NCBI GenBank assembly: GCA_964394405.1
Contig: CAYMVY010000002.1
Span: 64,092 to 128,091 of the forward strand
Source of the DNA: an uncultured Gammaproteobacteria bacterium
GTDB taxonomy: Bacteria; Patescibacteriota; Patescibacteriia; Magasanikbacterales; UBA922
Length of the DNA: 64,000 nt
Direction: 5' to 3'
Positions 266 to 54,519 of the stretch are shown here, in pieces (within the stretch, counting starts at the first letter, position 1; each line of letters opens with the position of its first letter). The notes below the pieces were generated by a model that saw only the letters and a program-made list of their open reading frames with translations, had not been told where the DNA came from and did not search any database. The position numbers were made by a program, and so were the translations under genes.

Positions 266-601
266 ATGGCTGTTGGGGCGGTTGAGGATTTGAGTGTCAG
301 TGACGAGGTGCTCGTGGCTATGCTCGGGATCGGGGCCCGCGTCTTCGGCGCTCTTCATACGGGCGTTGAGAGCGTTGGCTCTCTCGGTGTCCGAGTTGGC
401 ACGTTTCTTCTCGATACTCTCCCGGTCGACGCCAAGCGTCTTTTGGGGGATGTGTCGGACGAACATTTTTCGACCAACCTCCGCCGCAGTTTTGCGGATC
501 TGTGGGTCGAACTGTCGGAGTGGTTGCGGGAACTCATCTCGAGTCACCTGCCCGCTCAGGAGGATCTGGACGAGAACCTCTTCCGCGGATTCCACATCTA
601 G
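266..601 (+). CDS. hypothetical small protein (111 aa) in GC-rich island
   Basis: ATG at 266 preceded by AGGAGGG Shine-Dalgarno; ORF fills GC-rich island; overlapping ORFs in other frames are a GC artefact; no homology recognised. Confidence 0.4.
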   Translation: MAVGAVEDLSVSDEVLVAMLGIGARVFGALHTGVESVGSLGVRVGTFLLDTLPVDAKRLLGDVSDEHFSTNLRRSFADLWVELSEWLRELISSHLPAQEDLDENLFRGFHI

Positions 602-672
602 GACTATGCGGAGTGGTACTGCGTTGCGGGTCGAGAGTAATTTTTCGACCCGCTTCGCTTCATACAATATCT

Positions 673-1698
673 ATGTGGATCAAAAATATTTTAAATAATG
701 GTAAAAAAATTCTTGCACTTTCACCAATGGCCGACATGACTGATTCGGCCTTTTGTCAAATTGTAAGAATGATTGGTGGGGCTGATGTGGTGTTTCGCGA
801 AATGGTTTCAGCTGAAGCTCTCGTTCGTGATAATGAGAAGACACTAGGAATGACTGATTTTGTCGAAGCAGAGCGTCCTATTGTACAGCAGATATTTGGC
901 TCTGACCCGCTCACAATGGCTCGTGCTGCTGAGATTGTAATGACACATGCAGGGCCAGAAGGTATTGATATTAATATGGGCTGTCCGGTATATAAAATTA
1001 CGAGCAATTTCAATGGCTGTGCTCTGATGAAAGACCCAAAGCTTGCGCAGAATATTATTCGAGAAATTAAGCGAGCGATTGGAAATACACCACTTTCAGT
1101 AAAAATCAGATTGGGCTGGACGAATCGAGATGATTTCAAATATTTTATTCCTGCAATCGAAGAAGCAGGGGCAGAGCTGATTACCGTGCATGGTCGTACC
1201 AAAGAACAGGGATATAGTGGGGTTTCAGATTGGAATCTTATTGCTGAAGCAAAGAAAATTGCTACTGTCCCTCTTCTTGCGAATGGTGATATTCATAAAC
1301 CTAGACAAGTGGGTGATGCTCTCCAAGTGACTGGTGCTGATGGAGTATTGATTGCACGTGGTGCCCTTGGGAATCCATGGTTTTTCAAAGAGTATTTAGA
1401 TCCGAGTTTTACTGTTTCACTTCAAGAAAGAGTCGCAACCGTACTTCAACATGCGAAATTGCATATTGAATTTCAATCACGAGTGCGCACAATGGGGAAG
1501 AAGAATAGGGAAGAGGGAGTTACTGAAGAAATGGTTGCACAACGATCGATTACTACGTTTCGTAAACACCTCGCGTGGTATTTCAAGAATGACCGAGTAG
1601 GGGAGAGAGTGGAGGGGTTGAAGGAGCTTCGTATGAAGTTGATGAAGGTGGAGAGTTTTAGCGAGTTAGAGGAAATTTTAGGAAGCTTTATTAAGTAA
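673..1698 (+). CDS. dus: tRNA-dihydrouridine synthase (Dus family, TIM barrel, FMN)
   Basis: MADMTDSAFCQIVR...GCPV...KIRLGW motifs typical of DusB/DusA; start moved to ATG 673 (ORF call began upstream in GC island). Confidence 0.85.
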   Translation: MWIKNILNNGKKILALSPMADMTDSAFCQIVRMIGGADVVFREMVSAEALVRDNEKTLGMTDFVEAERPIVQQIFGSDPLTMARAAEIVMTHAGPEGIDINMGCPVYKITSNFNGCALMKDPKLAQNIIREIKRAIGNTPLSVKIRLGWTNRDDFKYFIPAIEEAGAELITVHGRTKEQGYSGVSDWNLIAEAKKIATVPLLANGDIHKPRQVGDALQVTGADGVLIARGALGNPWFFKEYLDPSFTVSLQERVATVLQHAKLHIEFQSRVRTMGKKNREEGVTEEMVAQRSITTFRKHLAWYFKNDRVGERVEGLKELRMKLMKVESFSELEEILGSFIK

Positions 1699-1793
1699 AA
1701 GTGAAAAAGTAAAAAGAATAAATTCACGTGCGGTTCTAGCTGTACAAAAATACACGACTTTATCTCGTGTATTTTCTTTTTACTTTTACGCTT

Positions 1794-2642
1794 TTACTTT
1801 TTCCTTTTGCCCGCTTGTATCACTGTATTTTTTAAAAGTAACGCGACAGTGATTGGTCCTACTCCTCCGGGCACGGGAGTGATGTAGGATGCTTTCTTTG
1901 AAACTTTTTTAAAATCAACGTCCCCATACATTTTTTTATCCACGAATACGATGCCCGTGTCGATTACTACACACCCTTTTTTTATATGAGATTTGGTAAT
2001 CAGATCTTTTTTTCCAACTGCACTGACCAGAATATCTGCTTTCTTCGTAATTGATTTGAGATTCTTTGTCTCAGAGTTGCAGACGCTTACGGTGGCTTGT
2101 TTATTTAGCAGCATAATTGCGAGTGGCTTTCCGACAAGCGCTCCTGCGCCTACAATAACCACATGCTTTCCTTTGACTTCTATATTCAGAGACTCGAGTA
2201 TCTCGAGCACAGCTCCAGGTGTCGGTGGTACGAGTGTGTTGGTTTTCATTACCAGCTTGCCGAGCTGTGCATCAGTCATACAGTCGACATCACGGTCAGG
2301 CTCGATTGTATTCAGTACCTCGGTTGTAAAAAGTGGCTCTGGGAGTGGTAGTTGTACAATCAGTCCAGACAAATGAGGATCTGTTTGGATTTTTTTTATC
2401 TCTGCTATTATTTTTTCTTTACTGGTCTCTGCGTCATATTTGTGCAATTCAAAATCAATCCCGACTGATTGAGCAGCAGCTTCTTTTTTCTTGATATAGG
2501 TCTGTGATGGTCGATCGTTGCCCACATATACGATTGCAAGCTTGGGAATTATTCCATCCTGCGACAAATCTCGCACTTTTGATTTGAGCGATGTTAGAAT
2601 ATTTTGGGATAATTGATTTCCATCGATAATTTTTTCTACCAT
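1794..2642 (-). CDS. folD: bifunctional methylenetetrahydrofolate dehydrogenase/cyclohydrolase
   Basis: Typical FolD N-terminus and NAD(P) Rossmann segment (VVIVGAGALVGKPLAIMLL). Confidence 0.9.
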   Translation of the reverse strand: MVEKIIDGNQLSQNILTSLKSKVRDLSQDGIIPKLAIVYVGNDRPSQTYIKKKEAAAQSVGIDFELHKYDAETSKEKIIAEIKKIQTDPHLSGLIVQLPLPEPLFTTEVLNTIEPDRDVDCMTDAQLGKLVMKTNTLVPPTPGAVLEILESLNIEVKGKHVVIVGAGALVGKPLAIMLLNKQATVSVCNSETKNLKSITKKADILVSAVGKKDLITKSHIKKGCVVIDTGIVFVDKKMYGDVDFKKVSKKASYITPVPGGVGPITVALLLKNTVIQAGKRKK

Positions 2643-2716
2643 AGTTGTGGGTATAGTATCAGAAAAGTCAAAAAAAATAAAGCCTCAGCACTTCGGCAGT
2701 TTTGACTTTTCTCGTT

Positions 2717-3649
2717 TTAATGCAACGAGGCTTGGAGATACCCAAAGAGTGAGAAAATCAACATGAGTACTACACCTTCTATCCGGCTCAACCGTTTATC
2801 GCTTTTGTAGAAATAGAGGAGCAAGATTGACATGACTATAAAAAAATAGAGAATTAACTGATACGAAATATCAACGGTAAGGAAAATGGGGCGCACTACC
2901 GCCATGACTCCGAGAATGACTGCGTTCACAATGGCGCTGCCCAGCATGTGACTAAATGAAATATCCCGAACCTTCTTTTTCCACGAGGTCAGGATAATAG
3001 TTAGTTCTGGCAAGTTGGTGCCGAGAGAGAAGAAAATCAACCCCACAAAAAATTGTGGAATAGTGAACCTCTCCATGAGTTCAATTGTAATTCGGATGAT
3101 GAGATTGGAGGAAATAATTATTCCGGTCATTCCGACAGCAATGAGAAAAATTTCTTCGACTACTCGATGTTTTTTTATGATGGTCGCGTGGATGTCGTGA
3201 ATGTGATGGTTTTTCTTGTAGAGATGAAATAGAAATCCGATGTACGCGATACAAATAAGTAATCCATCGATGAGCGCGAGTCTACCGTCGAGACCAAGTA
3301 TGAGTGGCAGAATAATCACGATAAAACCTGGTAAGGGTGTCAGGATATTTCCATCTGTTTTTATTTTTCGATTCAAGACCATGCTTAGACCGAGGATTAA
3401 ACCAAACACCACCATGATTCCTCCGAATAGGTTGCCGATTGAGATATCCTGTACTCCATTGATTGATGCAGTTATTGCAATTGAGAACTCAGGAAACGAG
3501 GTGAGAATCCCTAGTACTATTCCTAATACAAACATGGGGATTCCGAGCTGGATCGCGATTTTTTTGATGTTATTCACTACTACTGTTGCGGAGAGGGCAA
3601 GTAGGAAAAAAAGTCCACCGAGTGCTGCAATTGAGGCTAAGACAGGCAT
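2717..3649 (-). CDS. Ca2+/cation antiporter (CaCA/YrbG-like) membrane protein
   Basis: Polytopic membrane protein with duplicated GTNLPEL-type alpha-repeat motif. Confidence 0.7.
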   Translation of the reverse strand: MPVLASIAALGGLFFLLALSATVVVNNIKKIAIQLGIPMFVLGIVLGILTSFPEFSIAITASINGVQDISIGNLFGGIMVVFGLILGLSMVLNRKIKTDGNILTPLPGFIVIILPLILGLDGRLALIDGLLICIAYIGFLFHLYKKNHHIHDIHATIIKKHRVVEEIFLIAVGMTGIIISSNLIIRITIELMERFTIPQFFVGLIFFSLGTNLPELTIILTSWKKKVRDISFSHMLGSAIVNAVILGVMAVVRPIFLTVDISYQLILYFFIVMSILLLYFYKSDKRLSRIEGVVLMLIFSLFGYLQASLH

Positions 3650-3658
3650 ACGTACGAT

Positions 3659-5062
3659 TTACAATCTGATGTGTAGTTTGTCGAGCAAGATGAGGATACT
3701 AAAAAAACCAAAGAAAAGAAAAATGATACCGAGTATGATTTTTCTCCAGAGCCTTGGCTGGAGAATTTTTGGCAGAGATCGGTGATTTAGCCACGACACC
3801 ATTCCCACATGGACAAACATGGCGAATGCATTGATAATCGCACCAAGAACTATCAATGTCTTTGGTTCGTAAACATTGAGGAGAAATAGAATAATACCAA
3901 ACGCAATTTGCGCCCAGACGAATATATAATAAATTTTCGACAGATTTATTTTTTTGTCTCCAGATTGTGATAATTTTTTGATTGCAACATTTTCTGCCAT
4001 GATTCTGCTGGTGGAGTCGACAATTCCCATCTGTGTCTGGAAGAGCATGATTGAGACAATCAGGAGGAATAGTGTTCCCACAATCGGCGAGAGTTTTTCT
4101 CCAATTACTTTTCCCTCGTTGATGACAAAGTGGATACCCTCGGCATTATTTTCAAGACCGAAGGTGGTTGTGAATGAAAGTAACATCAAGAGTAGCATGG
4201 AAACACCGCCGACAAACCAAAAAACAATCAAGTGTTCGTTATTGATCGCTTTCCACCACTGTCTGAATCGGGATATGTTTTTTTCTGTTAGTTCGAATTT
4301 TTCACCATCTAATTTTATTTGACGCATTTTTTTGCGCGCAGTGAATAATCCACTGATTTTGTCTGCATATTTTCCCATTCCATACCCCTTTTCTTTTACA
4401 TAGATTGATTGTGTGAGGTTGAGATTGCCACCGGCTCCTGAATAGGCGAATGCGGCGAAGAATGTTGCAAGTACTATGCCTTCGGGTAAAAATCGAAAAT
4501 CGATTCCTTTGCCCACGAGTCCCGAAGCGAGTGCTGACCAGTCTGCAGAGGTGCTCAGTATAATCGTGAGAATAAAAATAAATGGAACACCCGCGAGTAT
4601 AATCGTTTTGGTGACACGCTCCATCATGCTGTAGACGGTTTTTCCTGTACTCAAGATGATACCGATACCCACAAGCATTGCGATTGCAATCCATTTGAAT
4701 TCAGTAATTCCGAATAACGATGCAAAAACTTCGGCAGATGCCGCAATAATACCCGGGAGTCCAAATCCAATAAAGGTTGATATGATAAACCAGTAGGTTG
4801 ACCAGGAGAATATTTTTGCAAGTCCCACGAATACACTTTCACCTTTGACGAGCGCATAGCGCTCTATTTCCATGTTGATAAAAAATTGGAAGGTGATGCC
4901 GAGGAGGGCTCCCCATGCAATGCCTAGTCCGTAATTTGACGCAAGATAGGGCCAGAGTATTACTTCACCTGATCCGAGACCAAGAGCGAGGATAATAAAA
5001 CTCGGTCCAAGTAGTTTTCGCATTTTGAATGCAGTAGGAAATTCTTTATATTTTTCTGGCAT
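3659..5062 (-). CDS. NRAMP-like divalent metal transporter family membrane protein
   Basis: About 11 TM segments, N-terminal region resembling the MntH/NRAMP fold; family assignment by eye only. Confidence 0.5.
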   Translation of the reverse strand: MPEKYKEFPTAFKMRKLLGPSFIILALGLGSGEVILWPYLASNYGLGIAWGALLGITFQFFINMEIERYALVKGESVFVGLAKIFSWSTYWFIISTFIGFGLPGIIAASAEVFASLFGITEFKWIAIAMLVGIGIILSTGKTVYSMMERVTKTIILAGVPFIFILTIILSTSADWSALASGLVGKGIDFRFLPEGIVLATFFAAFAYSGAGGNLNLTQSIYVKEKGYGMGKYADKISGLFTARKKMRQIKLDGEKFELTEKNISRFRQWWKAINNEHLIVFWFVGGVSMLLLMLLSFTTTFGLENNAEGIHFVINEGKVIGEKLSPIVGTLFLLIVSIMLFQTQMGIVDSTSRIMAENVAIKKLSQSGDKKINLSKIYYIFVWAQIAFGIILFLLNVYEPKTLIVLGAIINAFAMFVHVGMVSWLNHRSLPKILQPRLWRKIILGIIFLFFGFFSILILLDKLHIRL

Positions 5063-10808: not shown

Positions 10809-10833
10809 GGCTCGATTCAATTCAAGTATTTTA

Positions 10834-10867
10834 CCCTGCACCAGAACGGTGCAGGGTTTGTTTTTGT
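10834..10867. terminator. terminator hairpin ccctgcacc-agaac-ggtgcaggg + T-run (identical hairpin recurs at 27926)
   Basis: Seen directly; exact 23-nt repeat at 27926-27948. Confidence 0.65.
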
Positions 10868-10942
10868 CCTTTGATTGACAATGTATAATAGAAGTGTTTA
10901 ACTTTTTCAAGTGTCTTTCCTCTTTTTGGTCGGAGTAAGCCA

Positions 10943-11167
10943 ATGACTAGTAGAAATTACGGTGCACGTCCGCCCCAGGGGGCTGAGTGGCAGATCGGGA
11001 AGACTGCTGCCTCAATCAAGTTCGTCAACGATGCTGTCCGGTACATCGAGACGTGTCAGAACGAGCAGGATCGAGGGAAGCTTCTCGGTGCGGTCGAGAA
11101 GCTCAAGCGTGGAGAAATGGTGCTCGAGGCCTCGCTCGACCCCGAAGACTTTCTCTCCCAAGAGTGA
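10943..11167 (+). CDS. hypothetical 74-aa protein in GC-rich island (extended -10 TGTATAAT at 10883-10890, GGAG Shine-Dalgarno)
   Basis: Promoter, Shine-Dalgarno, ORF and terminator arranged as a compact cassette; no homology recognised. Confidence 0.4.
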   Translation: MTSRNYGARPPQGAEWQIGKTAASIKFVNDAVRYIETCQNEQDRGKLLGAVEKLKRGEMVLEASLDPEDFLSQE

Positions 11168-11241
11168 CAACAGCACACTCCAGTCCTGTCCGAAGAAGTT
11201 CTACCCTGAACCATTCGGGGCAGGACTTCTTCATAAAATTA

Positions 11242-11269
11242 AACCCCGGCTAGTGCCGGGGTTTTGTTT
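11242..11269 (+). terminator. terminator hairpin aaccccggc-tagt-gccggggtt + T-run
   Basis: Seen directly. Confidence 0.55.
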
Positions 11270-11356
11270 GATTCTTAAAATATATAATACATTTGCCACC
11301 CCCGTACCCCTTGAGTTTGGCTTAACCTAAGTTTGAAGAACAATAAGAATTAGTAT

Positions 11357-17014: not shown

Positions 17015-17359
17015 ATGCTTTTTCTCCTTCGAATTGTGCTCAATGCTGGCGTACTTCTACTTATTTCAAATGTGGTTGAAGGTATTAAGCTCGGGGGATG
17101 GTGGTCCGCAATTGTGACGGTAGTAGTGCTTGGAATCGTGAACGCTTTGATTCGACCGTTAATTCTTATTTTGACTTTGCCTGTAAACATTTTAACACTT
17201 GGATTATTTACTTTTGTTATTAATGCACTCATGTTCTGGTTTGCCTCATCGATTGTCAAAGGATTTGAAGTTGCTGGGTTCTGGCCAGCATTCTGGGGTG
17301 CTCTGTTATTCAGTGTCGCAAGTTGGCTAATTTCAACTCTAGTCTCCAAAAGAAACTAG
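17015..17359 (+). CDS. small 4-TM membrane protein, Phage_holin_4_2/DUF360 (YvlD-like) family
   Basis: GGWWSA motif and 4 TM pattern; family by eye. Confidence 0.55.
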   Translation: MLFLLRIVLNAGVLLLISNVVEGIKLGGWWSAIVTVVVLGIVNALIRPLILILTLPVNILTLGLFTFVINALMFWFASSIVKGFEVAGFWPAFWGALLFSVASWLISTLVSKRN

Positions 17360-18175: not shown

Positions 18176-18397
18176 GTAGATACACACGAATTACGCATTG
18201 CTGGTTAATGTTTTGAGTTTATTGGTGATTCGTATGTAATCGGTTTATACAAAAAGACCAGTTGTAGATTCTCCTTTTGCCACATCCGATATGTATCGGG
18301 TACAGCAATGGGGGTGCAACTGGTCTTGTTGTTCCCCCCGACTCGCGTGAGCGAGCTATTTCGGCAGTGATGCCGCTACGGTATCAGGGGCGGAGGC

Positions 18398-18628
18398 TTA
18401 GAAGCCTCCGATGTCGAGATCGCTCAGGGTTCGTGCGGGAACTTTCTGACTCTTGTTCTCCATGGTTGTGTTGGGCGGGGGAACGTGGCCACTGACCATC
18501 GTCGAGGGAGGGGGCACCTCCGTAGTCATCTCCTGCTCGGGCGGGTTCCAGGATGATTCCTGGGACATCACCACGATCAGGATGAGGACGATAATCAGTA
18601 CGATTACACCAATAATCGTGCCAATCAT
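18398..18628 (-). CDS. hypothetical small membrane protein (76 aa; N-terminal TM, Pro-rich tail) in GC-rich island
   Basis: Own promoter TTGACA-N16-TATACT (plus coords 18681-18708), GGAGA Shine-Dalgarno; alternative plus-strand ORFs are Arg-rich GC artefacts. Confidence 0.4.
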   Translation of the reverse strand: MIGTIIGVIVLIIVLILIVVMSQESSWNPPEQEMTTEVPPPSTMVSGHVPPPNTTMENKSQKVPARTLSDLDIGGF

Positions 18629-18764
18629 TGTGATCTCCGCATGACTTGACGGTTTGAGACGACAGATATCACAAGCACAGAGTATAGACCCACTGCGTCC
18701 AGTGTCAATAGTTTTTATTCAAATCTTGATTATTTATCCACCGTGAGGTACTCTCGATCTGAGT

Positions 18765-22024: not shown

Positions 22025-22440
22025 AAACAAAAGTAGGCGGGGGTGGGGATTGGATGTCTCCCCACCTGTTTTTTGGGTGGGAGCAGGTCCTGGTGGGCTA
22101 CATTGGGGGTTTTTGAAAAACCCCGGAAGGAGAAAAAGAACTGTCCTCTATTCTTTTTTTTGAAAAGTGCAGAGGACAGTGAGACACTTATTCCGATAGG
22201 CCGTCACCTCTACCAGAACAGGTGTCCCAAAAAACTCAATCTTGCGTGCCCAAACAAGATTTTTTTGCCGAAGTGGGGGGTAGTCGGCGGCTCGCGCCAC
22301 AGGCAGCGTCACTGCCAACATTTGCGTTCCGGCAAGAGTTTTGCTGGGGGGAGGTGCCTCACGTCTCGTCCCCAGACTGTCCTCTGGGGGAGACGCAATC
22401 TCACCCACAGACTATAAGCGTGAGAACAAGCCTATGGTGT
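22025..22440. ncRNA. GC-rich, hairpin-dense noncoding island between two terminators; candidate structured RNA of unassigned identity
   Basis: GC spike in AT-rich background; perfect palindromes (ggggtttttgaaaaacccc; ctgtcctct...agaggacag); ORFs in all frames with heterogeneous composition; no promoter/Shine-Dalgarno-supported CDS. Confidence 0.35.
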
Positions 22441-22465
22441 ATGGGTGAATATATGCCAAACATAG

Positions 22466-22486
22466 ACAAAAAATGGTTTTTTGTCA
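22466..22486. terminator. bidirectional terminator gacaaaaaa-tgg-ttttttgtc (3' of sodA)
   Basis: Seen directly. Confidence 0.5.
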
Positions 22487-27295: not shown

Positions 27296-27332
27296 AATTT
27301 TTTTGATTGTATGATATAACCTGGGTGAATTT

Positions 27333-27545
27333 GTTGCACTCCTTGATTCCACGGTTGGATAGCGTGTCCGTTGCTCCGCCTGTCACTCTACCGGTAGAGT
27401 ACAGCGTGTGGGATTATCCTGGAATATCGGTATGCGGTAGGACGGTATCCGCTTTGTCTGATTTGTGCACTCACTGAGAAAAGACGAATTCACTCGGGAA
27501 CGCGAGAGATCACTCTCTCCCGCGTTCCCTTGTCCATAATATATT
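27333..27545 (+). ncRNA. candidate structured RNA (unit 1) with closing helix GGGUGAAUU/AAUUCACUC, bounded by terminator
   Basis: GC-rich, extended -10 TGaTATAAC at about 27316-27325, 5'/3' complementary ends, terminator at 27546-27576. Confidence 0.3.
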
Positions 27546-27576
27546 AAAAAAACCGACATACCGTCGGTTTTTTTAT
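27546..27576. terminator. bidirectional terminator aaaaaaaccgac-atac-cgtcggttttttt
   Basis: Seen directly. Confidence 0.6.
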
Positions 27577-27652
27577 TTTAATTTAGCAAAATTTATTAGT
27601 TATCCACCGTATTTCTTGTGGTCTGATTCGGCACATGGTATAAAGAGTATAA

Positions 27653-27925
27653 GGTTGAGGTAAGTAGGGGAGATCGGAAGTTGAGGATCATATCCTCGTT
27701 TCACGCAGGTTACCTGCAAACTGACTGGCACGCCTCGCGCGCCACAAAGTTCGCAACTCTTGCGAGAAACTGCTTCTTCGGAAGCGCCCTTTTTCCCCAT
27801 GGAACTCTCGGGTTCCACTACTTGCCTTCACTCAGGAGGCGGACTACTGGTGTTCTCGAACACCGTGTCCGCCTCCGCAACCTACACTCTTATCTTCTCC
27901 TCATGAGGAAATAAGAGCAATAAAA
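27653..27925 (+). ncRNA. candidate structured RNA (unit 2), GC-rich, nested hairpins (ggaggcggac...gtccgcctcc), promoter TTGTGG-N17-TATAAA at 27620-27646
   Basis: No convincing ORF; bounded by promoter and the ccctgcacc/ggtgcaggg terminator. Confidence 0.3.
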
Positions 27926-27955
27926 CCCTGCACCAGAACGGTGCAGGGTTTTATT
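27922..27955. terminator. bidirectional terminator ccctgcaccagaacggtgcaggg + T-run (second copy of this hairpin)
   Basis: Seen directly; identical to 10834-10856. Confidence 0.65.
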
Positions 27956-28958: not shown

Positions 28959-30170
28959 ATGCGATGGAAGATACTTCTTATTTTTTTTGTCTTGATTGTC
29001 GGGGTTTTTTTTGTTTTTCGCCCTCGTTTTTCTATTTTGGGTCAAAAGATTGAAGCTCCTGCGGAAGAGTCAACAGCTACAGAAGTGGTAGAGACTCATG
29101 TCCCACAATTTATATTTGAGACGCATGTGGTTGAAGAGGGGGAGACTTTTAGCATTGCGACAGATAAATTGGGTATTTCGTATACTGAGATGCTTGATAT
29201 TCTTGAACACTCTTCCTCGACATATGATTTTACTCGAATCAAAGTCGGACAACCTCTTATTCTTGCAAAAAATGCAGACGGAACACGTAATTATCTGGAC
29301 TACGAACGAAATCGCGAATCAATCGTTCGTTTTTATTTTGCAGAAAACAGAGCAGAAATTATTCCGATTGAATATGAAGTTGAAGAAGTGGTGGTGCAGG
29401 GAGTCGTCTCTTCATCGATGTATCTTGACGCGCTCGCACTTGGAATTCCTGACGCAGTCATTATGCAATTTGCAGATACGTTCGCCTGGACGATTGATTT
29501 TTCTACACAAGTTCAGTATGGAGATACTTTTTCAATTATTTATGAGAAACGAAAACGCAATGGGGCAGATGCTGGTACTGGATTGGTGCGTGCAGGAAAG
29601 TTTGTAAATAGTGGAAATGAATTATACGGATTCTTGTACGAACAGGAAGAAGGGAAACCTTCATATTTCAATGAAAAGGGTGAGTCTATGGTTAAGGCAT
29701 TTTTGCGCGCCCCTCTGGAGTATAAACGTATAACTTCTGGCTACACCACGGCTCGATTCCATCCCATATTGGGCAGAAACACAACACATCTTGCAATTGA
29801 CTATGCAGCGGCAATTGGTACGCCGATTATGGCAGTGGGTGATGGTACGGTAACATTTGCTGGATGGAATAGTGGGGGATTTGGTAATTTTGTAACTATC
29901 AAACATAACGATACATTTATTACTGAATATGCTCATTTATCCGGATTTGCAAAAGGGATTAAATCAGGGGTTCGTGTAGTGCAGGGACAGGTAATTGGGT
30001 ACGTTGGTTCGACGGGGTTATCAACTGGCCCTCATTTGCATTATCAAATTAGGCAGAATGGAACATTGGTCAATCCACTTAAGGTTGAGTTTCCTCCGGG
30101 GGATCCGATTAGCGATGAGCATCGAGGTGGATTTGAAGGTGAGGTTTTGAAGTATAAAGATAGACTTTAA
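28959..30170 (+). CDS. M23 family metallopeptidase with N-terminal TM and LysM/OapA-like domain
   Basis: HxxxD...GPHLHYQ M23 motifs. Confidence 0.85.
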   Translation: MRWKILLIFFVLIVGVFFVFRPRFSILGQKIEAPAEESTATEVVETHVPQFIFETHVVEEGETFSIATDKLGISYTEMLDILEHSSSTYDFTRIKVGQPLILAKNADGTRNYLDYERNRESIVRFYFAENRAEIIPIEYEVEEVVVQGVVSSSMYLDALALGIPDAVIMQFADTFAWTIDFSTQVQYGDTFSIIYEKRKRNGADAGTGLVRAGKFVNSGNELYGFLYEQEEGKPSYFNEKGESMVKAFLRAPLEYKRITSGYTTARFHPILGRNTTHLAIDYAAAIGTPIMAVGDGTVTFAGWNSGGFGNFVTIKHNDTFITEYAHLSGFAKGIKSGVRVVQGQVIGYVGSTGLSTGPHLHYQIRQNGTLVNPLKVEFPPGDPISDEHRGGFEGEVLKYKDRL

Positions 30171-31337: not shown

Positions 31338-31364
31338 AGGTTACTTGACAGTATGTTGCATTTT
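31335..31364 (+). promoter_or_regulatory. consensus-like promoter TTGACA-N17/18-TATCAT driving GC-rich small ORF
   Basis: Read directly. Confidence 0.45.
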
Positions 31365-31414
31365 TTTTATCATAAATTGAAACCTGTGCGTGTTTCCGAG
31401 GTGAGGGAGTCTAT

Positions 31415-31750
31415 ATGCCTGCGTACTTGATTACTACGGATGGGGTGAGGCTGTGTCCTCGGGATGGACTCAAGGGTATTCTCGATGAGAAGAGTACCTG
31501 TCCTACATTTGCGGTCTATTGGACCGCTCGTGAGTACGTGAGCCAGCTTCTGGTGGTCGGACAGTTTCCGACCTATGAAGCACTGTGCCACAAGGCTCGT
31601 TGGTCATTCGTCGCTCCTGCGCTTCCTCCTCACTTCGAACGATTCGACGGAGTGTGGAAGCTCACCGATGAGGGGCGGTGGGAGTGGGTTGCAGGAATGG
31701 TTGGGGTGATGCCTGATGCTGTTGCAGACGCGCTCTGTCTCAACAGGTAA
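31415..31750 (+). CDS. hypothetical 111-aa protein in GC-rich island (GAGGGAG Shine-Dalgarno)
   Basis: Promoter, Shine-Dalgarno, ORF and hairpin (ccggtcgc-ctaacac-gcgaccgg) cassette; no homology recognised. Confidence 0.4.
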   Translation: MPAYLITTDGVRLCPRDGLKGILDEKSTCPTFAVYWTAREYVSQLLVVGQFPTYEALCHKARWSFVAPALPPHFERFDGVWKLTDEGRWEWVAGMVGVMPDAVADALCLNR

Positions 31751-31820
31751 CACTACCTCCAACTCAACCTCTGGACCAATGTCCGGTCGCCTAACACGCG
31801 ACCGGATTGTTCTCAATAAT

Positions 31821-32504
31821 TTAAAAAATTTCAAAGTGTATTTTTTGCATTTCAGTTCCTCCTGTGATAAGCATTGCACGAACATCTTTTACCATTTCAG
31901 CACTTCCGCAGATGAATGCTCTCAGATTTGAAGTATCTTTTGGTATATGTTCGGTCACTCGACCGCGCAGTCTTGTCCACAAATCCTCAGGTCTAGAGAC
32001 TGTAAGTAAATAAGAAAAATTTGGGTATTCTTTTTGTAACTCATCAAGTCGATCTGTCCAGAAAATACTTTTTTCGTAGCGTACACCGAAGATAAGTTGA
32101 ATTTTTTGTTGATTCTTTTTGTTTTTTAGTTCATCTGTCAGTATCGACATGATAGGTCCTAGTCCTGCGCCAGTCGCAATAAAATATATATTTTCCGCAT
32201 TTGTATCGAGTACAAATCTTCCTGCGGGTTTTTTGAAAATAATTTGATCTCCGACTTGTTTACTTCGAAAATAATTTGATCCGACTCCATCTGGAAGAAG
32301 CTTCACGCATAGTTCAATATAGTTGTCAGCTGGAGTAGAGGAGATCGAGTATGATCTGAATACTTCTTTATCATCTTTGGGTATCACAATCTGGACAAAT
32401 TGCCCTGCAATGAAATTTAGATTATTTGGCTTAGTAAAGCGAATTTCAAGCATCTCATCTGCAATCTCCCTCTTTTCAATCACGACACCGGTAAATATGT
32501 CCAT
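31821..32504 (-). CDS. ferredoxin-NADP reductase-like FAD/NAD(P)-binding oxidoreductase
   Basis: RSYSISS FAD motif, GxGxxP NAD motif; start set at MDIFTGVV (ORF call extended to 32576, overlapping divergent Rrf2 gene). Confidence 0.75.
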   Translation of the reverse strand: MDIFTGVVIEKREIADEMLEIRFTKPNNLNFIAGQFVQIVIPKDDKEVFRSYSISSTPADNYIELCVKLLPDGVGSNYFRSKQVGDQIIFKKPAGRFVLDTNAENIYFIATGAGLGPIMSILTDELKNKKNQQKIQLIFGVRYEKSIFWTDRLDELQKEYPNFSYLLTVSRPEDLWTRLRGRVTEHIPKDTSNLRAFICGSAEMVKDVRAMLITGGTEMQKIHFEIF

Positions 32505-32946: not shown

Positions 32947-32951
32947 TCTGT

Positions 32952-40544: not shown

Positions 40545-40590
40545 AATTACGATAGATGTTGGGTGGGGAAACGTATTTACGGAGGTTCTC

Positions 40591-40812
40591 ATGAGCGAGA
40601 GAAGGTGTCCTGAGCATCGAGGTACTGGCATTACGCCGAAGGATATCACATGCCACAATCATGTAGGCGTGTTGCAACAACGGTTTCACAACATGCACTG
40701 TCGTGCGCTCAAGTGCCCATTCGCACTCAAGGGTGCTGAACGTCATGTCGATGCTTCTACACATTTTGCTCGGAGCACTGTGGAATTCATCCTTTGGCTC
40801 GTCAGTGGTTAG
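40591..40812 (+). CDS. hypothetical 73-aa Cys/His-rich protein (GGAGG Shine-Dalgarno)
   Basis: ATG 40591 with Shine-Dalgarno; C6,H9,C21,H22,H24,H33,C36,C41 pattern; moderately GC-rich; minus-strand ORF overlaps. Confidence 0.35.
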   Translation: MSERRCPEHRGTGITPKDITCHNHVGVLQQRFHNMHCRALKCPFALKGAERHVDASTHFARSTVEFILWLVSG

Positions 40813-40872
40813 GAGGTGACTGGATTCTCGATACTGAACCCACTCACCCAAGATCTATTGTATATCATTATT

Positions 40873-49712: not shown

Positions 49713-50494
49713 TCTTGCTTCACAAACCTGCAGAAAAAGTTGATACTCTATACCTCTAGTTTTTGAACGCCAATTCTGTGGTGTCGCACAATGTAGGGGA
49801 TAGCATAGTCGAAAGTCTATAAAGTCATAAAGTCGAAAGTAAGAAATACAATACGCGTGTTAGTTGAACTGGTGCTAGGGGAGGGAAGGAAAAATTATAT
49901 GTGTAAAATGTTGACTCAAATACAGGAATCAAAGTTAGTTGGATTCAAAAGAACCTTTTTGTTCTATAGTATATAGTGTCGTATAAGATATATTGTGCGA
50001 CACGTAGTACTAAAGCGCGACACCTCACTTTCTGCTCTACCCTGCCTAGAAATGAGCTAAAAATAATTGTCTACGCATCTAATGTCGCAGGACGATTTCA
50101 CTACCTGACCTCAAACATTCTTTTACGAGTAAAAAACTAGGCATTTAAAAACCGATCAATTCAATGGTCGGCTTTTTTAATGTTTGGTTTATGGTTGGGA
50201 GGTTTTTTGACTGAATTTGGGGTGTTATCTACTCCCCGACCCTTAAGCCTGTAAAAGGTCAGGAGAGGTCAAGAAGTTATGAGAGTGTTCCCTACTACTT
50301 TTGCGGTCAGGTAGTTTGCGGTATAATTGTACTTAAATATATTCCCTTTCAACGGGGAGCATGAGCAAAATTGTCCCCTGAAGATTGAGTTTAATTATTG
50401 ACTACTGGATAGTCGCCCCCACAGTTAATCAACTTGGTTAGCTGTTGTGGGCGTTACTATCAGTGACGTTCAATTTTATTCTTAATCTCCTTCT

Positions 50495-50605
50495 ATGGCC
50501 AAGACCAAGAAAGGCAAGAAGATCGTGGAGGTTCGCCGCCACTATCGTCATGTCGGAGACAAGCGAATTCTCGTGAGAGAATATCGCAAGTCTACACCTA
50601 ATTAA
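50495..50605 (+). CDS. possible 36-aa highly basic peptide (MAKTKKGKKIVEVRRHYRHVGDKRILVREYRKSTPN)
   Basis: Small ORF followed by terminator 50645-50675, flanked by about 25-bp inverted repeats; no Shine-Dalgarno; could be noncoding. Confidence 0.25.
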   Translation: MAKTKKGKKIVEVRRHYRHVGDKRILVREYRKSTPN

Positions 50606-50644
50606 TTTTAGGTGAGGGGCTCCATGCTCCCCTTTCAAGGGGAA

Positions 50645-50690: not shown

Positions 50691-51395
50691 TTATTCTAAA
50701 TCGAAGTTTTTCTTTAGCTTATTCAGTTCTTCAGAATCAGTAAGTCTCTTTACTTCCCTGCTCTTTTCAAGTTTTTTTATCTCGTCTAGAAGTGATTGAA
50801 AATCTTTTTCCCACTTACCTTGCTTATATGCGTGAACTGAGGTAGGGTTCAAGTACGTCGCCCATTCATCATCTGTTCGAGAGCAACCAACTTCGAATTT
50901 TTTATCTCCATTCTCAAGAACCTCGATATCTACATATTTGTCATCACTCGAATAACCTTGCCACTCTCTTGTCTGGATTGTATACAAAGAATCGTTAATA
51001 GTTAAAGTATAACCTTCTTTATCAGAGTCTTTTACTTTATCTATTTTCTCACTTAAAGAAACAACCATAGGCACAGATTCACGTCCCCGTTTAATCCAAC
51101 TTGGAAAATATTTTGTTTCGTCGTAAACTTTAACCACCAAGTCGTCTAGTCCTTTGTTCTTTGCTTCTTTTGATTTTTTCTCAGCTAAATCTCTAATTCT
51201 TTTGGCTTCTTTTACTGCTGTATCTTCTATTTCATTTTTATGGTTTGGTTGTATTTTTTCTGAAGTTTTTTTCTCAGCTTTTTCTTTTCTATTTAGATAT
51301 ATATAACAAGTGACAGTTAAAAAAACACAGCCTACCCAAAAGCTTTTAAAGATAAGAGCTACTATTATTGAAATAAAAACGAGAAGCCAAATCAT
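50691..51395 (-). CDS. hypothetical membrane protein: 2 N-terminal TM helices, Lys/Glu-rich linker, about 150-aa C-terminal domain of unknown family
   Basis: 8 bp downstream of the TIR-like gene on the same strand. Confidence 0.6.
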   Translation of the reverse strand: MIWLLVFISIIVALIFKSFWVGCVFLTVTCYIYLNRKEKAEKKTSEKIQPNHKNEIEDTAVKEAKRIRDLAEKKSKEAKNKGLDDLVVKVYDETKYFPSWIKRGRESVPMVVSLSEKIDKVKDSDKEGYTLTINDSLYTIQTREWQGYSSDDKYVDIEVLENGDKKFEVGCSRTDDEWATYLNPTSVHAYKQGKWEKDFQSLLDEIKKLEKSREVKRLTDSEELNKLKKNFDLE

Positions 51396-51403
51396 AATAA
51401 TAT

Positions 51404-52087
51404 TTAGAGATCCTTTACTTCAATATCGTATCCTTTGTCTGTCATTTCTTGTGCCAATTGTAGACGGGACTCTTTTACGTCTTCTTTGAATGGAATGTAT
51501 ATAAGTCCTTGGATGTCAGATGGACGCTCCATGTCAGCCTGATGCTTTAGCAAAATAGCAACCTTGTCTCTTCCTAATTTTGCCAGCATCATTCCAAGTT
51601 CGAGAACCACATTTTGTCTTGCTCTAAATGTTTTTGCTTCCTCATTATCTTTTTTATATCCTATGTCATCAGGTGTTGCAAGTACAATACAAAAATCAAC
51701 TTTGGAAGTATATTTTTCCAATTTTTCAATTATGGTTTTTCCACCAGAGGGTAGTTGGTCTAGGATCAAAGGGTTTAGACCCCATTTTCTGAGCATGGCT
51801 TCTAGTTGAGTTTTTGCGTCGTCGTCGTGTCCATATACAACAAAAACATCTTTCTTTGGTTCCTTCATAGGAGTAACTTGTAATACTCCCCCTGTTTTAT
51901 CGGGGAGCCCAAGTAATTGCTTTAAAGGTTCTGGGTTTTTGCCCTGAACACTTATTCGACCTGTTTTATATACGTTTACGATTGTGCCGTCCGCAATGGT
52001 TAGTTTTATTCCGTGGGGTATCTCTTTTTCAGCAGTTACGGTAAATCCCTTGTTTTGAAGCAATTCCTTGAGTTGATTTATATCCAT
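51404..52087 (-). CDS. TIR-like domain protein (DUF2263/COG4271, Pfam CAP12-PCTIR_TIR-type) with about 75-aa N-terminal domain of unknown function
   Basis: VFVVYGHDDDA...CIVLATPDDIGY...RARQNVVLELGMMLAKLGRDKVAILL...PSDIQGLIYIP matches the family signature from memory; promoter TTGAAA-N17-TATGAT at 52111-52139 (minus). Confidence 0.65.
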   Translation of the reverse strand: MDINQLKELLQNKGFTVTAEKEIPHGIKLTIADGTIVNVYKTGRISVQGKNPEPLKQLLGLPDKTGGVLQVTPMKEPKKDVFVVYGHDDDAKTQLEAMLRKWGLNPLILDQLPSGGKTIIEKLEKYTSKVDFCIVLATPDDIGYKKDNEEAKTFRARQNVVLELGMMLAKLGRDKVAILLKHQADMERPSDIQGLIYIPFKEDVKESRLQLAQEMTDKGYDIEVKDL

Positions 52088-52199
52088 ATTTTTGAGGTTT
52101 ATTTATCTCAATCATAGGTTATTTCGGTATTTTTTTCAACTCCCCCATTCATGGCACCTTCTGGGCATCTACAGTCTGGGTGGTTTTCTACCAAAACCC

Positions 52200-52228
52200 T
52201 TGACAATCCCCCTTTTTTGCGATAGTAT
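52200..52228 (+). promoter_or_regulatory. consensus promoter TTGACA-N17-TAGTAT followed by about 110-nt GC-rich structured leader
   Basis: Read directly. Confidence 0.45.
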
Positions 52229-52345
52229 GCCCAGCCGCTCTTTGAGAAATCCCTGCCTGTATGGGTAGGTCGGTCTCGGTAACGGGACTAAGAGGGTAAT
52301 TGCTCCTACCCTGCCCAAAGGAGTATCTAGGAAAGGATAAGGTCA

Positions 52346-52672
52346 ATGTCGCTGCAGCACATGAAGATCCTCCAGGGTCCCTGCAAGTTCCGCCTCATGG
52401 AGTCCCTGTTCCACGTCGCGGATGATCCGATCGATTACCCCCGGGAAGCGGTGACGTTCCTCGTGGAGTACAGAGGGGAGAAGTGCCGTATCTCGATCCC
52501 CTCGGTCGAGAGCATCGGACGTGTCTTCGGTGAGTACGAGACTTACCGAGTCAAGGGATATGGCAAGATGGTCCCGAACGCTGACCGTGCCAACTCCCTG
52601 TTCGAGCACCTGCCGGTCGAGCTCGTCTACTCGGTCCGGGACCGAAACGGGGTCGCTCAGGCCTCTTTCTGA
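52346..52672 (+). CDS. hypothetical 108-aa protein in GC-rich island
   Basis: ORF fills GC island; terminator hairpin ggccccga...tcggggcc at 52689-52723; no homology recognised. Confidence 0.4.
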   Translation: MSLQHMKILQGPCKFRLMESLFHVADDPIDYPREAVTFLVEYRGEKCRISIPSVESIGRVFGEYETYRVKGYGKMVPNADRANSLFEHLPVELVYSVRDRNGVAQASF

Positions 52673-52921
52673 CCCCTAGTGTGCCGTGGCCCCGATTCTT
52701 GTATGAGAGTCGGGGCCGTTCTAATGTAAACTATATTTTCAAATAAAAAAGCCGTAGTTGTATAGACTATGACTTTTTTATTTTTTTGATGTTATTTACT
52801 CTTTTTTAATTCCAGCATCCGTCTGAATCCTCGCAGAAAAAATGATGATCGACTCTTCCCTATCTTTGCCTGATAAAAGTCGCTCCTGCAATTTTGTAAT
52901 GTTTTATACATATAGTTTTGT

Positions 52922-53194
52922 TTAAGATTGAGTGAGCCAATTGACTGTTTTTTCTGCTAGATTTGATGATGTCCAATTTCTGGTTACTTCAGTCACGTAG
53001 ATTTTATCGTTTTTATTGGTGACGCTTTTCAGCTGTCTAATAATATCGAGTGAAGTGAGGTCTGTTTTTATAAGCCAGAATGATCCCATTGGTCTGGTCC
53101 AGAAATTGGCAGTTTTGATCATCTGGATTAATTTGGCATATTCAGGACTAGACTCTGGTTCTGCCAAGTCGTATGAAATGAGGTAGGTCTTCAT
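52922..53194 (-). CDS. hypothetical 90-aa protein translationally coupled to lexA (start overlaps lexA stop)
   Basis: MKTYLISYDL... ferredoxin-like-fold look; family not assigned. Confidence 0.5.
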   Translation of the reverse strand: MKTYLISYDLAEPESSPEYAKLIQMIKTANFWTRPMGSFWLIKTDLTSLDIIRQLKSVTNKNDKIYVTEVTRNWTSSNLAEKTVNWLTQS

Positions 53195-53197
53195 AGT

Positions 53198-53785
53198 CTA
53201 GATGTATTGTCGTACTACTCCAGTCACCACTCCCCCGACCTTCAGTTCGTATTTTGGAAATATGTCTGGATATTTTTTGTTTGCTGCCCGGAGAAACATT
53301 TTTTTGCCCCGCTGCATCAAGTATTTGAGTGTCCATTCGTGATCGACTTCTGCAACCACGACTGCTCCTGGTTTTGCAGGTTTCTTTCTATTCACGATTA
53401 CCATGTCCCCTGACATGATACCTGCGCCTTGCATCGAATCACCAGAAACTTTGAGTAGAAATGTGTGTGTGGGTTCGTGAATCAGTAGATCATTCAGTGA
53501 AATACAGTCGAGCAGGCTTTCTTCTGCGTCATGCGGGATGCCTGCGCGGACTTCTCCCAGCACCCGGACTCCGTAGAGTTTTGGGGTTGCAATGAGAAAT
53601 CCTTCATCGCTTTTACGCACTACATCATCTTCGATAAATTTTTCAATATAGTCATGTACGGTTGATTTTGATTTTACTCCGAAGACTTTGGTAAGTTCTT
53701 CGTATGTCGGGAGGCGCTTGTTCCGGTTGTAGTATGCTACGAGCGCTTCCATTCTTTTTTTGTAGAGATCTATAGGCATATACAA
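53198..53785 (-). CDS. lexA: LexA repressor (S24 peptidase, HTH N-terminal domain)
   Basis: Ser-Lys dyad (GDSM...K), cleavage-site region and winged HTH. Confidence 0.85.
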   Translation of the reverse strand: MYMPIDLYKKRMEALVAYYNRNKRLPTYEELTKVFGVKSKSTVHDYIEKFIEDDVVRKSDEGFLIATPKLYGVRVLGEVRAGIPHDAEESLLDCISLNDLLIHEPTHTFLLKVSGDSMQGAGIMSGDMVIVNRKKPAKPGAVVVAEVDHEWTLKYLMQRGKKMFLRAANKKYPDIFPKYELKVGGVVTGVVRQYI

Positions 53786-53854
53786 TGGGTTAGGTATTTA
53801 AATTTGCGTTACGCTTTTTGTCCCCGGCCGGACGGACAATAGCGGAACGTAAAT

Positions 53855-53902
53855 CGAACGATTGTTCTCCTCCTAAAAATAGTATATACGAACGTTCGTT
53901 CG
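53855..53902. promoter_or_regulatory. two Cheo-type SOS boxes (CGAACgattGTTC at 53855-53868; CGAACGTTCGTTCG at 53889-53902) embedded in lexA promoter TTGACG-N17-TATACT (minus)
   Basis: GAAC-N4-GTTC palindromes read directly; box 2 lies in the promoter spacer. Confidence 0.5.
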
Positions 53903-54149
53903 GCGTCAAAGCTTTTTGTAGGCACATATGTGGATAACTTAATGTCATTCCCGCGAAAGCAGGAATCCAGAATAAAAATACAATATTGAGTACACTCTCT
54001 GTACTTTTTGTAACCAAAAAGTACCACAAAAAGTTTCGGGGGTGACAAAACTCGCCTCACTAAGTTTGGTTAGTGATTTTACGCTCTTAGCTCAAACAGT
54101 TGTCACCCCCGAACCCCCTTTGTTCGCTTTATATATATTGGGCGTTTAA

Positions 54150-54176
54150 TAACAAAACCGCCCTTATCGGGCGGTA
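54150..54176 (-). terminator. terminator accgccc-ttatc-gggcggt with T-run on minus strand
   Basis: Seen directly. Confidence 0.5.
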
Positions 54177-54316
54177 GTCTATTCTATCATTCACTATACA
54201 CGAATTTCATGCGCAGTGAATGGTTCGCGATCGAGTGTGTTTTGCCTTACACAGTCGATCGCGAGTGGTGATTCCTCCTCAAAGAGGGTGAATCACTTTC
54301 CCGAAGAGGGGTGGGG

Positions 54317-54519
54317 TCAGATGTTCTCGTGATCCTCGGGCGGCGCGTCGGTCACGACGTTCTCCGGATCGTGAGGCGGAGACTTGGGCTGCGGCACTGG
54401 CTGCCAGAAGGCCTCCGGCTCCAGATCGTCCGGTCCGCAGGCCTTCTGCATCGGCGGCTTGTACTTGCCACCGGTGGGGTCGTAGCCACGCACCGTAGTG
54501 CTATCTTTCGAATTCGACA
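54317..54519 (-). CDS. hypothetical 67-aa Pro/Asp-rich protein in GC-rich island (GGAGAAG Shine-Dalgarno)
   Basis: ATG (minus) at 54517-54519; 15-bp inverted repeat hairpin at 54225-54264 and terminator at 54150-54176 downstream. Confidence 0.35.

Follow-up and report, generated by a model that had tools for sequence, protein, structure and literature searches.

GC-rich small-gene islands with moron-like anatomy and minority Shine-Dalgarno signals in a Candidatus Magasanikbacteria genome

Phage morons are autonomous transcription units found inserted between the genes of a phage (reviewed in PMC3594210). A second precedent comes from Bacteroidetes, in which genomes poor in Shine-Dalgarno (SD) sequences retain strong, correctly spaced SDs on rpsU and rpsR, genes thought to be read by ribosomes with a transiently free anti-SD (PMC7797042). 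Here, we compare with these systems a set of guanine-cytosine (GC)-rich islands, each holding a small open reading frame (ORF), in a 64,000-nucleotide (nt) stretch of contig CAYMVY010000002.1 (GenBank assembly GCA_964394405.1), hereafter the window. The source genome is a metagenome-assembled genome (MAG) of Candidatus Magasanikbacteria, a lineage of the candidate phyla radiation (CPR, or Patescibacteria), and syntenic loci retrieved with a neighboring ATPase of 858 amino acids (aa) came from MAGs of the same lineage at 61-85% identity.

As with a moron, an island comprises a single gene with, as far as sequence alone can tell, its own sigma-70-type promoter and intrinsic terminator; its base composition is unlike that of its flanks, its product is often a small protein of accessory or unassigned function, and it lies between genes that are adjacent in relatives (island 2 in loci L005, L007, and L008; island 3 in L008). 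Unlike morons, the islands are placed between bacterial housekeeping genes (SWIB/DUF87 ATPase, pyrH-like/dnaG, exonuclease/oxidoreductase, and the ftsQ region) with no phage or prophage, and they appear to form a lineage-wide class whose shared codon choice and SDs have been kept over long times. The SD minority of Bacteroidetes is similar in that a genome nearly without SDs carries strong ones on a few genes. There, however, the products of the SD-led genes are the ribosomal proteins bS21 and bS18, which themselves occlude the anti-SD and so give autoregulation, whereas the islands encode orphan small proteins, many per genome, with a distinct codon choice and -1 context; none of the island proteins matched Pfam or resembled ribosomal proteins. 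Each kind of component is already known. What is new here is the combination of moron-like cassettes with a minority SD regime, and a search of the literature found no description of this cassette class.

We favor the interpretation that the islands are moron-like cassettes forming a separate SD-dependent expression class, and give it about an even chance of being correct. Each island would then be a stand-alone monocistronic protein-coding unit, built from a sigma-70-type promoter, a leader of 25-130 nt (structured in some units) with a canonical SD, a small ORF made almost wholly of G/C-ending codons, long perfect 3' hairpins, and an intrinsic terminator. Such units would be inserted, lost, and exchanged at intergenic sites beside resident terminators, and most of their products would be lineage-restricted orphan proteins.

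Composition, coding status, and signals of the islands

Mean GC content of the window is 41.4%, with a standard deviation of 0.052 among 200-bp windows. A sequence-only reading of this DNA had picked out seven GC-rich islands. Six of them peak 3.4 to 5 standard deviations above the mean, with 200-bp maxima of 0.605 (182-688), 0.605 (10893-11280), 0.615 (18224-18706), 0.59 (31371-31839), 0.625 (52194-52779), and 0.67 (54151-54629), whereas the seventh (40560-40815 in that reading, 40555-40783 here) reaches only 0.52, a value matched by several ordinary coding stretches. Every island holds a single small ORF of 67-111 aa where that reading had placed it, once the starts of i5 (40591) and i7 (54520) are corrected, and island 1 additionally contains the 3' end of a second GC-rich ORF (i1a). 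Beyond those listed by that reading, there are three further GC-rich islands without a coding signal, at 22030-22480, 27320-27575, and 27640-27950. The parts of the seven islands are given below, where GC3 denotes GC content at third codon positions.

i1a, 1-120, plus strand: tail of a GC-rich ORF truncated where the window begins, GC3 0.85; hairpin downstream at 136-176
i1, ORF 266-601 with SD GAGGAGG at 252-258, plus strand: acidic 111-aa product, SD duplex of -12.3 kcal/mol, no clear promoter
i1 3' hairpin/terminator, 602-660 (stem 626-653), plus strand: fold z = -5.4
island 2, 10834-11241, plus strand: 408-bp insertion relative to the empty site of relatives
island 2 parts, plus strand: hairpin 10833-10857; candidate extended -10 TGTATAAT at 10882-10889; AT-rich leader with GGAG at 10932-10935
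i2, 10943-11167, plus strand: 74-aa ORF, then a 3' hairpin; the resident terminator at 11241-11264 is apparently used
island 3, 18249-18708, minus strand: candidate promoter TTGACA-N16-TATACT at 18708-18681; SD GGAG at 18638-18635
i3, 18628-18398, minus strand: 76-aa single-pass membrane ORF; conserved long 3' hairpin/terminator at 18339-18249
island 4, 31345-31805, plus strand: candidate promoter TTGACA-N17-TATCAT at 31345-31373; SD GAGGTGAGGGAG at 31399-31409
i4, 31415-31750, plus strand: 111-aa ORF; hairpin at 31783-31805
i5, ORF 40591-40812 (unit 40582-40812), plus strand: SD GGAGG, Cys/His-rich 73-aa product, within the suf Fe-S operon
island 6, 52200-52717, plus strand: candidate promoter TTGACA-N17-TAGTAT at 52200-52228; 110-nt leader of three hairpins at 52236-52345 with SD-like AGGAAAGGA
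i6, 52346-52672, plus strand: 108-aa ORF; hairpin at 52688-52717
island 7, 54157-54678, minus strand: candidate promoter TTGACA-N17-TATACA at 54678-54650; 128-nt leader; SD CTGGAGAAG at 54534-54526
i7, 54520-54317, minus strand: acidic, Pro-rich 67-aa ORF; 3' untranslated region (UTR) with three long hairpins at 54316-54176; terminator at 54175-54157

GC content shows a three-base periodicity in the SD-preceded frame of i1a (p = 1e-5), i1 (p = 4e-7), i2 (p = 0.003), i3 (p = 5e-4), i6 (p = 3e-10), and i7 (p = 5e-4). The signal is marginal in i4 (p = 0.07), absent in i5, and absent in all UTRs and in the three unlisted ORF-less stretches, scored over 22030-22440, 27320-27540, and 27640-27920. 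Judged by this signal, i1a, i1, i2, i3, i6, and i7 are protein-coding; i4 is unproven as a protein gene. The i5 ORF, although SD-led, has a GC content of 51% and a GC3 of 0.50, and in the contig of a near-identical strain its place is within the suf operon, flanked by an FeS-assembly-P gene and one for ferredoxin. It is an ordinary suf-operon gene and at best a doubtful member of the cassette class.

Apart from i3, a single-pass membrane protein, the products are mostly small acidic proteins, with i6 near-neutral, and three of the seven ORFs are missing from the public protein collection. An HMMER scan of 1.8 billion representatives recovered four remote full-length homologs of i6 (37-43% identity, 17 invariant residues). 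The AlphaFold (AF2) model built from these five sequences has an alpha+beta fold (predicted local distance difference test score [pLDDT] 82, predicted template modeling score [pTM] 0.74), for which no convincing structural neighbor was found. Positional homologs of i3 in four related genomes (L004-L007) share its hydrophobic N-terminal segment and have an acidic C-terminus with F as its last residue. Hence, the earlier claim that the products have no recognizable homology stands insofar as neither Pfam nor PHROG matched any of them, but fails for i3 and i6; that they are mutually unrelated was borne out on comparison. Word-indexed searches for homologs of i6 and i1 returned nothing or only the query (for i1, only the self-match in 5.8 billion proteins), and scans of IMG/VR for i1, i4, and the i6 family returned no viral relatives, so that a phage origin is not supported. 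With its 76 aa, very hydrophobic N-terminal helix, own promoter, and long structured 3' end, i3 also recalls type I toxins and similar small membrane proteins. Unlike these, it has a polar acidic tail of 55 residues whose end is conserved, and it is the only hydrophobic product of the islands, the rest being soluble; an antisense RNA was not identified at i3, where no search for an antisense promoter was made.

Codon choice separates the island ORFs from resident genes. GC3 is 0.57-0.85 in the islands (0.50 in i5) against 0.34-0.48 in 14 native genes, and A-ending codons make up 7.8% of the pooled island codons against 32% of native ones. Use of AAG is 92% in islands and 23% in native genes, and the corresponding values are 80% and 28% for GAG, 94% and 48% for CAG, 88% and 25% for AAC, 80% and 29% for TAC, 78% and 29% for ATC, and 75% and 30% for TTC. 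GC content of the island UTRs is only moderately raised (0.38-0.58), and the island effect is therefore chiefly one of synonymous-site choice. The sliding-window GC and codon-usage checks thus both set the island ORFs apart from native genes, i5 excepted.

The same genes differ in how translation is predicted to start. All seven island ORFs are preceded by an SD with a predicted duplex energy of -5.4 to -12.3 kcal/mol, whereas the best SD-anti-SD duplex of native genes (n = 45, positions -20 to -4) has a median of 0 kcal/mol and reaches -5.4 or stronger in only 2 of 45. Both parts of the sequence-only reading, strong SDs on the islands and no comparable SD on native genes, were upheld, the latter more strongly than it had been put. 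Position -1 is T (U in the mRNA) in 43 of 45 native genes, for example, 3659-5062 (minus), 28959-30170 (plus), and 60358-61602 (minus), and in two of the seven island ORFs. Moreover, -10-like hexamers reach about double density in the 15 nt preceding native ATGs, a weak hint of very short or absent leaders, and we do not claim that native genes are leaderless.

A consensus scan placed TTGACA-N16-TATACT before i3 (11/12 matches, the top match within 1-20 kb) and also recovered TTGACA-N17-TATCAT before i4 and TTGACA-N17-TAGTAT before i6; the TTGACA-N17-TATACA of i7 and the extended -10 of i2 were recognized by eye. Near-consensus promoters are thus present at islands 2, 3, 4, 6, and 7, but promoter-like matches are as frequent in shuffled sequence (45 compared with 42.6 in shuffles), so the promoters alone prove little and serve as supporting evidence only. 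The lack of a clear promoter at island 1 was the same on re-reading. The hairpins said to close the islands are well founded: the 3' regions fold far beyond shuffles, with z-scores of -5.4 (i1), -6.1 (i2), -2.9 (i3), -4.8 (i4), and -8.95 (i7). A covariation check found compensatory changes in two elements, both in UTRs: five compensatory pairs in the 29-pair 3' hairpin of island 3 across relatives, and seven in the conserved three-hairpin leader of the i6 family, in which the SD is kept.

Distribution, exchange, and persistence among relatives

The relatives were surveyed as ~85 Magasanikbacteria loci with a crude ORF map (longest ATG ORFs), in which 43 small ORFs with outlying GC and GC3 were found in 25 loci. 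An SD is present at -20 to -4 in 60% of these outliers compared with 9% of other ORFs (odds ratio 14.6, p = 1.4e-15). Scored at control positions, the outliers carry one in only 14-21% of cases, which indicates that the enrichment is not a by-product of GC-richness. T at -1 is found in 14% of the outliers and in 78% of 810 long ORFs (p = 1.7e-17). Upstream, the relatives' cassettes have TTGACA/TATAAT-like boxes in AT-rich DNA and a leader with GGAGG or AGGAG; downstream, they have GC-rich hairpins and a T-run. They also share the island codon choice, for example, AAG in 12/12, AAC in 12/13, and TTC in 7/7 cases in a genome of 35% GC, and their own GC content is ~0.54-0.61 across genomes of 0.33-0.47 GC, in a set chosen by composition. 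Among ten long cassette proteins from relatives, Pfam and PHROGs returned only one weak cold-shock domain (L027). Three independent traits tied to translation set the class apart from the bulk genome, namely an SD, no preference for U at -1 (found in about 80-95% of native genes), and G/C-ending codons. In our preferred interpretation, the island genes belong to a class found throughout Candidatus Magasanikbacteria and seen in other Patescibacteria.

Species-level relatives are collinear with the window at ~75-80% DNA identity and differ from it at islands. At the SWIB-gene site, L005, L007, and L008 have no cassette, and the stop codon is followed by AAGTATTTTA and the resident terminator AAACCCCGGCTAGTGCCGGGGTTTT; in the window, the 408-bp block of island 2 (10834-11241) is found there between TATTTTA and AACCCCGG. 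A different small gene occupies this site in L004, on the opposite strand and with its own TTGACA promoter and AAAGGAG. The i2 unit is nearly unchanged in three independent assemblies of close strains (L001-L003, 92-97% identical), with only two substitutions in its ORF, and dN/dS is uninformative. Logan runs DRR736411, SRR8893622, and SRR22387877 carry i2. The site has a second variable segment, the spacer at 11268-11352 directly past the resident terminator, which is wholly different in L001-L003. Island 3 is missing from L008, which has a 95-bp gap only, and is present but strongly diverged in L004-L007. In L095 compared with L088, the ORF has been replaced while the last codons, 3' hairpin, and terminator are ~90% identical. 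As judged from these alignments, intergenic sites acquire units, lose them, or exchange one for another. This check for absence from relatives rests on i2 and island 3, for which close relatives cover the site; for islands 6 and 7, a metagenome scan with the MurG-like neighbor returned only relatives at 54% identity or less. An assembly chimera was rejected as a source of the islands, given that i2 and i5 recur in independent assemblies and that island 3 has syntenic homologs.

The mode of insertion was also considered. Target-site duplications or common repeats at island ends were considered and rejected. The i2 block is bounded by TTTTA/AATTA, which is too short to argue for a transposase. 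Its left-end hairpin is identical over 27 nt to the terminator of the ORF-less island at 27925, and apart from this hairpin, present twice, no repeats are shared among the islands. Integron cassettes and clusters of attC sites lacking integrases (CALINs) are comparable in having small, mostly orphan ORFs of ~0.3-0.6 kb exchanged as units, and one related locus (L096) holds an array with a common ~40-nt repeat. Unlike integron cassettes, the units in the window are solitary, each with a promoter-like site, and there is no integrase in the window; no attC-type site was seen at the islands by inspection, with no attC covariance model run, and their 3' ends are hairpins of unrelated sequence. Shared 3' repeats, moreover, resemble ordinary intrinsic terminators. 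The i6 homologs lie in clusters of eight to nine orphan small genes (L096, 209-5075; L098, 3849-9376), several of them SD-led. In the L096 cluster, some genes have TTGACA-type promoters, and four end in the ~40-nt terminator repeat ACCCCGCGAGGCCCCGCTTCGGCGGGGyCTTCTTTT.

Codon choice and SDs persist in families that have diverged considerably. Orthologs of i3 in five genomes have GC3 of 0.49-0.71 against a background of 0.30-0.44; their proteins are only 16-39% identical, and they are GC-rich although flanking genes share only ~75% DNA identity. Leader and SD are preserved in the i6 family, whose members are 37-46% identical and whose homologs adjoin Mur ligase genes on contigs of 46-50% GC. 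Similarly, a 210-aa GC3-rich gene from a relative of 32% GC has a GC3 of 0.81 compared with 0.22. Its family has more than 880 homologs, the named ones almost all from Patescibacteria at 50-70% identity. In three other genomes, GC3 of its members is 0.52-0.75 compared with 0.22-0.40 in their neighbors, and the leader, ending in AAAGGAGAAAACGCC-ATG, is conserved (AAAGGAG). Across such distances, an insert of foreign origin evolving neutrally would have taken on the composition of its surroundings; the codon choice and SD have therefore been maintained. No homologs were found outside Patescibacteria-type contexts.

One arrangement of the 210-aa family is of separate interest. In L104 and L105 (8001-10542), a GC3-rich member of 208 aa lies directly upstream of bAvd and a reverse transcriptase, and its position suggests that it may be the variable protein of a diversity-generating retroelement. 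Reverse transcriptase and Avd are absent from the window.

The genes flanking the islands are of ordinary kinds and encode Dus, a SWIB protein, an amino-acid-kinase-family (pyrH-like) protein, DnaG, RpoD, SodA, Fmt, an exonuclease, an oxidoreductase, the suf operon products, an FtsQ-like protein, a LexA-like peptidase, and a TIR protein. Within the window, there is no gene for an integrase, a transposase, a reverse transcriptase, or a phage structural protein (capsid and terminase included). About 0.9 kb from island 3, a 114-aa protein (17015-17359, plus) has a match to the "mycobacterial 4-TMS phage holin" family (PF04020), with no further phage genes near it. Island 6 is flanked by a TIR-domain protein of the CAP12/Pycsar-effector type (51404-52087, minus) and a LexA-like S24 peptidase (53198-53785, minus), and its surroundings may be a small defense or stress neighborhood. 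Palindromic intergenic repeats of ~100 nt, with the pattern ATAGAACGCGGAT..ACACGGGT..CCCGTGTT..GTTCTAT, occur at 32951, 34239, 37299, 38970, 39803, 46193, and 63091, mostly between suf operon genes, and resemble repetitive extragenic palindromes (REPs) or miniature inverted-repeat transposable elements (MITEs). Finally, 49740-50606 consists of ~750 nt without an ORF followed by a very basic 36-aa ORF (MAKTKKGKKIVEVRRHYRHVGDKRILVREYRKSTPN, 50496-50606), which uses AAG for six of seven lysines yet has no SD and has T at -1.

Weighing of alternative explanations

The islands could instead be structured non-coding RNAs, whose ORFs arise as by-products of GC-richness because stop codons are then few, an alternative that the sequence-only reading had itself raised. 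The strong and partly conserved structure of the UTRs, with its compensatory changes, would fit this explanation, as would the marginal periodicity of i4, its absence in i5, the conservation of the 3' element between L095 and L088 although their ORFs differ, and the existence of three other GC-rich islands with no coding signal, one of them conserved as a non-coding element in relatives. However, periodicity falls exactly in the SD-preceded frame of six ORFs and not in their UTRs, the SD enrichment is position-specific, and the homologs of i6 align over their full length with 17 invariant residues and a confident model. Orthologs of i3, likewise, keep the hydrophobic N-terminal segment and the acidic C-terminus with its final F. 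No Rfam family was matched by the islands: at gathering and permissive thresholds only tRNA-Gln passes, and sub-threshold matches are terminator look-alikes. We therefore reject structured RNA with an artefactual ORF for i1a, i1, i2, i3, i6, and i7 (periodicity p <= 0.003, and for i6 also homologs and fold), and consider the explanation scarcely credible for the islands as a group. Recent and repeated import from GC-rich, SD-using donors (a host bacterium, its phages, or plasmids), with features not yet ameliorated, has more in its favor: neither composition nor translation signals match those of the bulk genome, the i2 insertion is young, absent from relatives, and common only to strains at least 92% identical, most products are orphans, and known hosts of Patescibacteria are GC-rich (10.64898/2026.06.21.733656). 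To this extent the earlier reading is supported, but its proposal of repeated acquisition of foreign small genes, as it was put, is not and would leave part of the picture unaccounted for. Old Patescibacteria families keep both architecture and codons, with the 210-aa family spread across Patescibacteria and retaining its GC3 excess in genomes of 32-41% GC, and with i3 orthologs still GC-rich in five species. Upstream of i2, promoter and leader resemble native sequence in being AT-rich, and no homolog occurs in any non-CPR context, those of i6 being in ORFan clusters adjoining Mur ligase genes. Moreover, i1, i4, and the i6 family lack viral relatives, and import at random would be expected to deliver genes of every size, known domains among them, rather than small orphans almost exclusively. 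Import on its own is thus unlikely in our view; the observation of the earlier reading is confirmed, and its interpretation is supported in part.

Two further explanations take the codon choice as their starting point. A native class of very highly expressed genes, likewise named by the sequence-only reading, is a plausible alternative, in which G/C-ending codons would be optimal and strong promoters, SDs, and 3' hairpins would maximize output, while the bulk genome drifts to A/T-ending codons by mutation pressure. The preference for NNC codons (TTC, TAC, AAC, ATC, and CAC) is the usual signature of optimal codons, and GCT and CGT are up, not down. The near-consensus promoters, SDs, and strongly folded 3' ends, the cold-shock-domain protein encoded by the GC3-rich unit in L027, and the conserved GC3 excess of old families are also in line with high expression. 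Nonetheless, optimal codons in AT-rich bacteria do not usually include so nearly complete a shift to AAG, GAG, and CAG. Of the genes classically associated with high expression, the related loci offer only two, IF1 (L052) and a Csp-like gene (L036), and these have a GC3 excess of only +0.05 and +0.10, respectively, and no SD. Highly expressed genes are, furthermore, normally conserved and not strain-variable orphans, and a preprint describes codon usage of Patescibacteria ribosomal proteins as poorly compatible with GC-rich genomes (10.64898/2026.06.21.733656). We rate the high-expression explanation as distinctly unlikely. Alternatively, since an SD, no U at -1, and G/C-ending codons together would be best for a GC-rich, SD-using host and worst for the apparatus of the parasite, the cassettes could be tuned to the translation machinery of such a host. 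The same preprint reports codon usage in Patescibacteria that is complementary to that of GC-rich hosts, and uptake or exchange of host RNA. In one version, itself of low probability, the units or their hairpin-protected mRNAs would be delivered to the host cell and expressed there as effectors; in another, equally of low probability, they would be translated in the parasite only with host-derived tRNAs or ribosomal components, as a host-contact switch. We regard tuning to a host, in either version, as very improbable.

The three GC-rich islands that were not on the initial list are where the RNA alternative does fit. The element at 22030-22480 (minus), between rpoD and sodA, has a TTGACA-N17-TATGTT promoter, conserved blocks (CAGAGGACAG ... 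CTGTCCTCTG), terminators, and no counterpart in Rfam. The window, L005, L007, and L008 have this element, and L004 lacks it; it is probably an undescribed, non-essential non-coding RNA. The stretches at 27320-27575 (plus) and 27640-27950 (plus), upstream of fmt, are GC-rich, non-periodic, and closed by terminators, and the second ends in the 27-nt hairpin ACCCTGCACCAGAACGGTGCAGGGTTT (27925) that also forms the left end of the island 2 insertion.

A putative Shine-Dalgarno-dependent channel

By analogy with Bacteroidetes, the interpretation that we prefer is a separate SD-dependent channel. Cassette mRNAs would be recruited through pairing of the leader SD with the anti-SD, while the ordinary mRNAs of the cell start translation without an SD. 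Families that persist would keep their SD and GC-rich codons under selection, so that composition would be part of their mode of expression, and long hairpins at the 3' ends suggest stabilized messages. The outcome would be a separately controllable and probably stabilized expression channel for fast-evolving proteins, to which we infer an accessory role.

Several points weigh against this interpretation. Promoters, SD use, and translation of the islands are predictions from sequence; i1 has no clear promoter, and the coding signal of i4 is marginal. The constant GC content of cassettes across genomes is partly circular, since the outliers were selected by composition, and the crude ORF calling in related loci adds noise. 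The interpretation offers no reason for G/C-ending codons to go with SD-led initiation. Codon usage of Patescibacteria ribosomal proteins is reported in a 2026 preprint to be distinct from that of GC-rich hosts (10.64898/2026.06.21.733656), which would make the codon choice of the cassettes non-optimal rather than optimal. Finally, a published survey recovered the anti-SD motif from only 48% of 16S genes in Parcubacteria (PMC9297842), and an SD-dependent channel cannot work in a lineage without an anti-SD; neither the window nor any related locus searched contains a 16S 3' end.

CPR bacteria, or Patescibacteria, account for a large share of bacterial diversity and are obligate symbionts with tiny genomes, in which lineage-specific genes are mostly unannotated. 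If a simple sequence rule (SD present, no U at -1, G/C-ending codons, own promoter, and hairpins) does mark a distinct gene class with rapid turnover, it would cheaply pull candidate host-interaction or accessory genes from thousands of MAGs, genes that would be overlooked by gene finders whose training rests on bulk sequence. Two modes of translation initiation would then coexist in one reduced cell, which bears on the reported loss of the anti-SD in many Parcubacteria, and the cassettes would offer a testable link between codon usage and the relationship of parasite and host.

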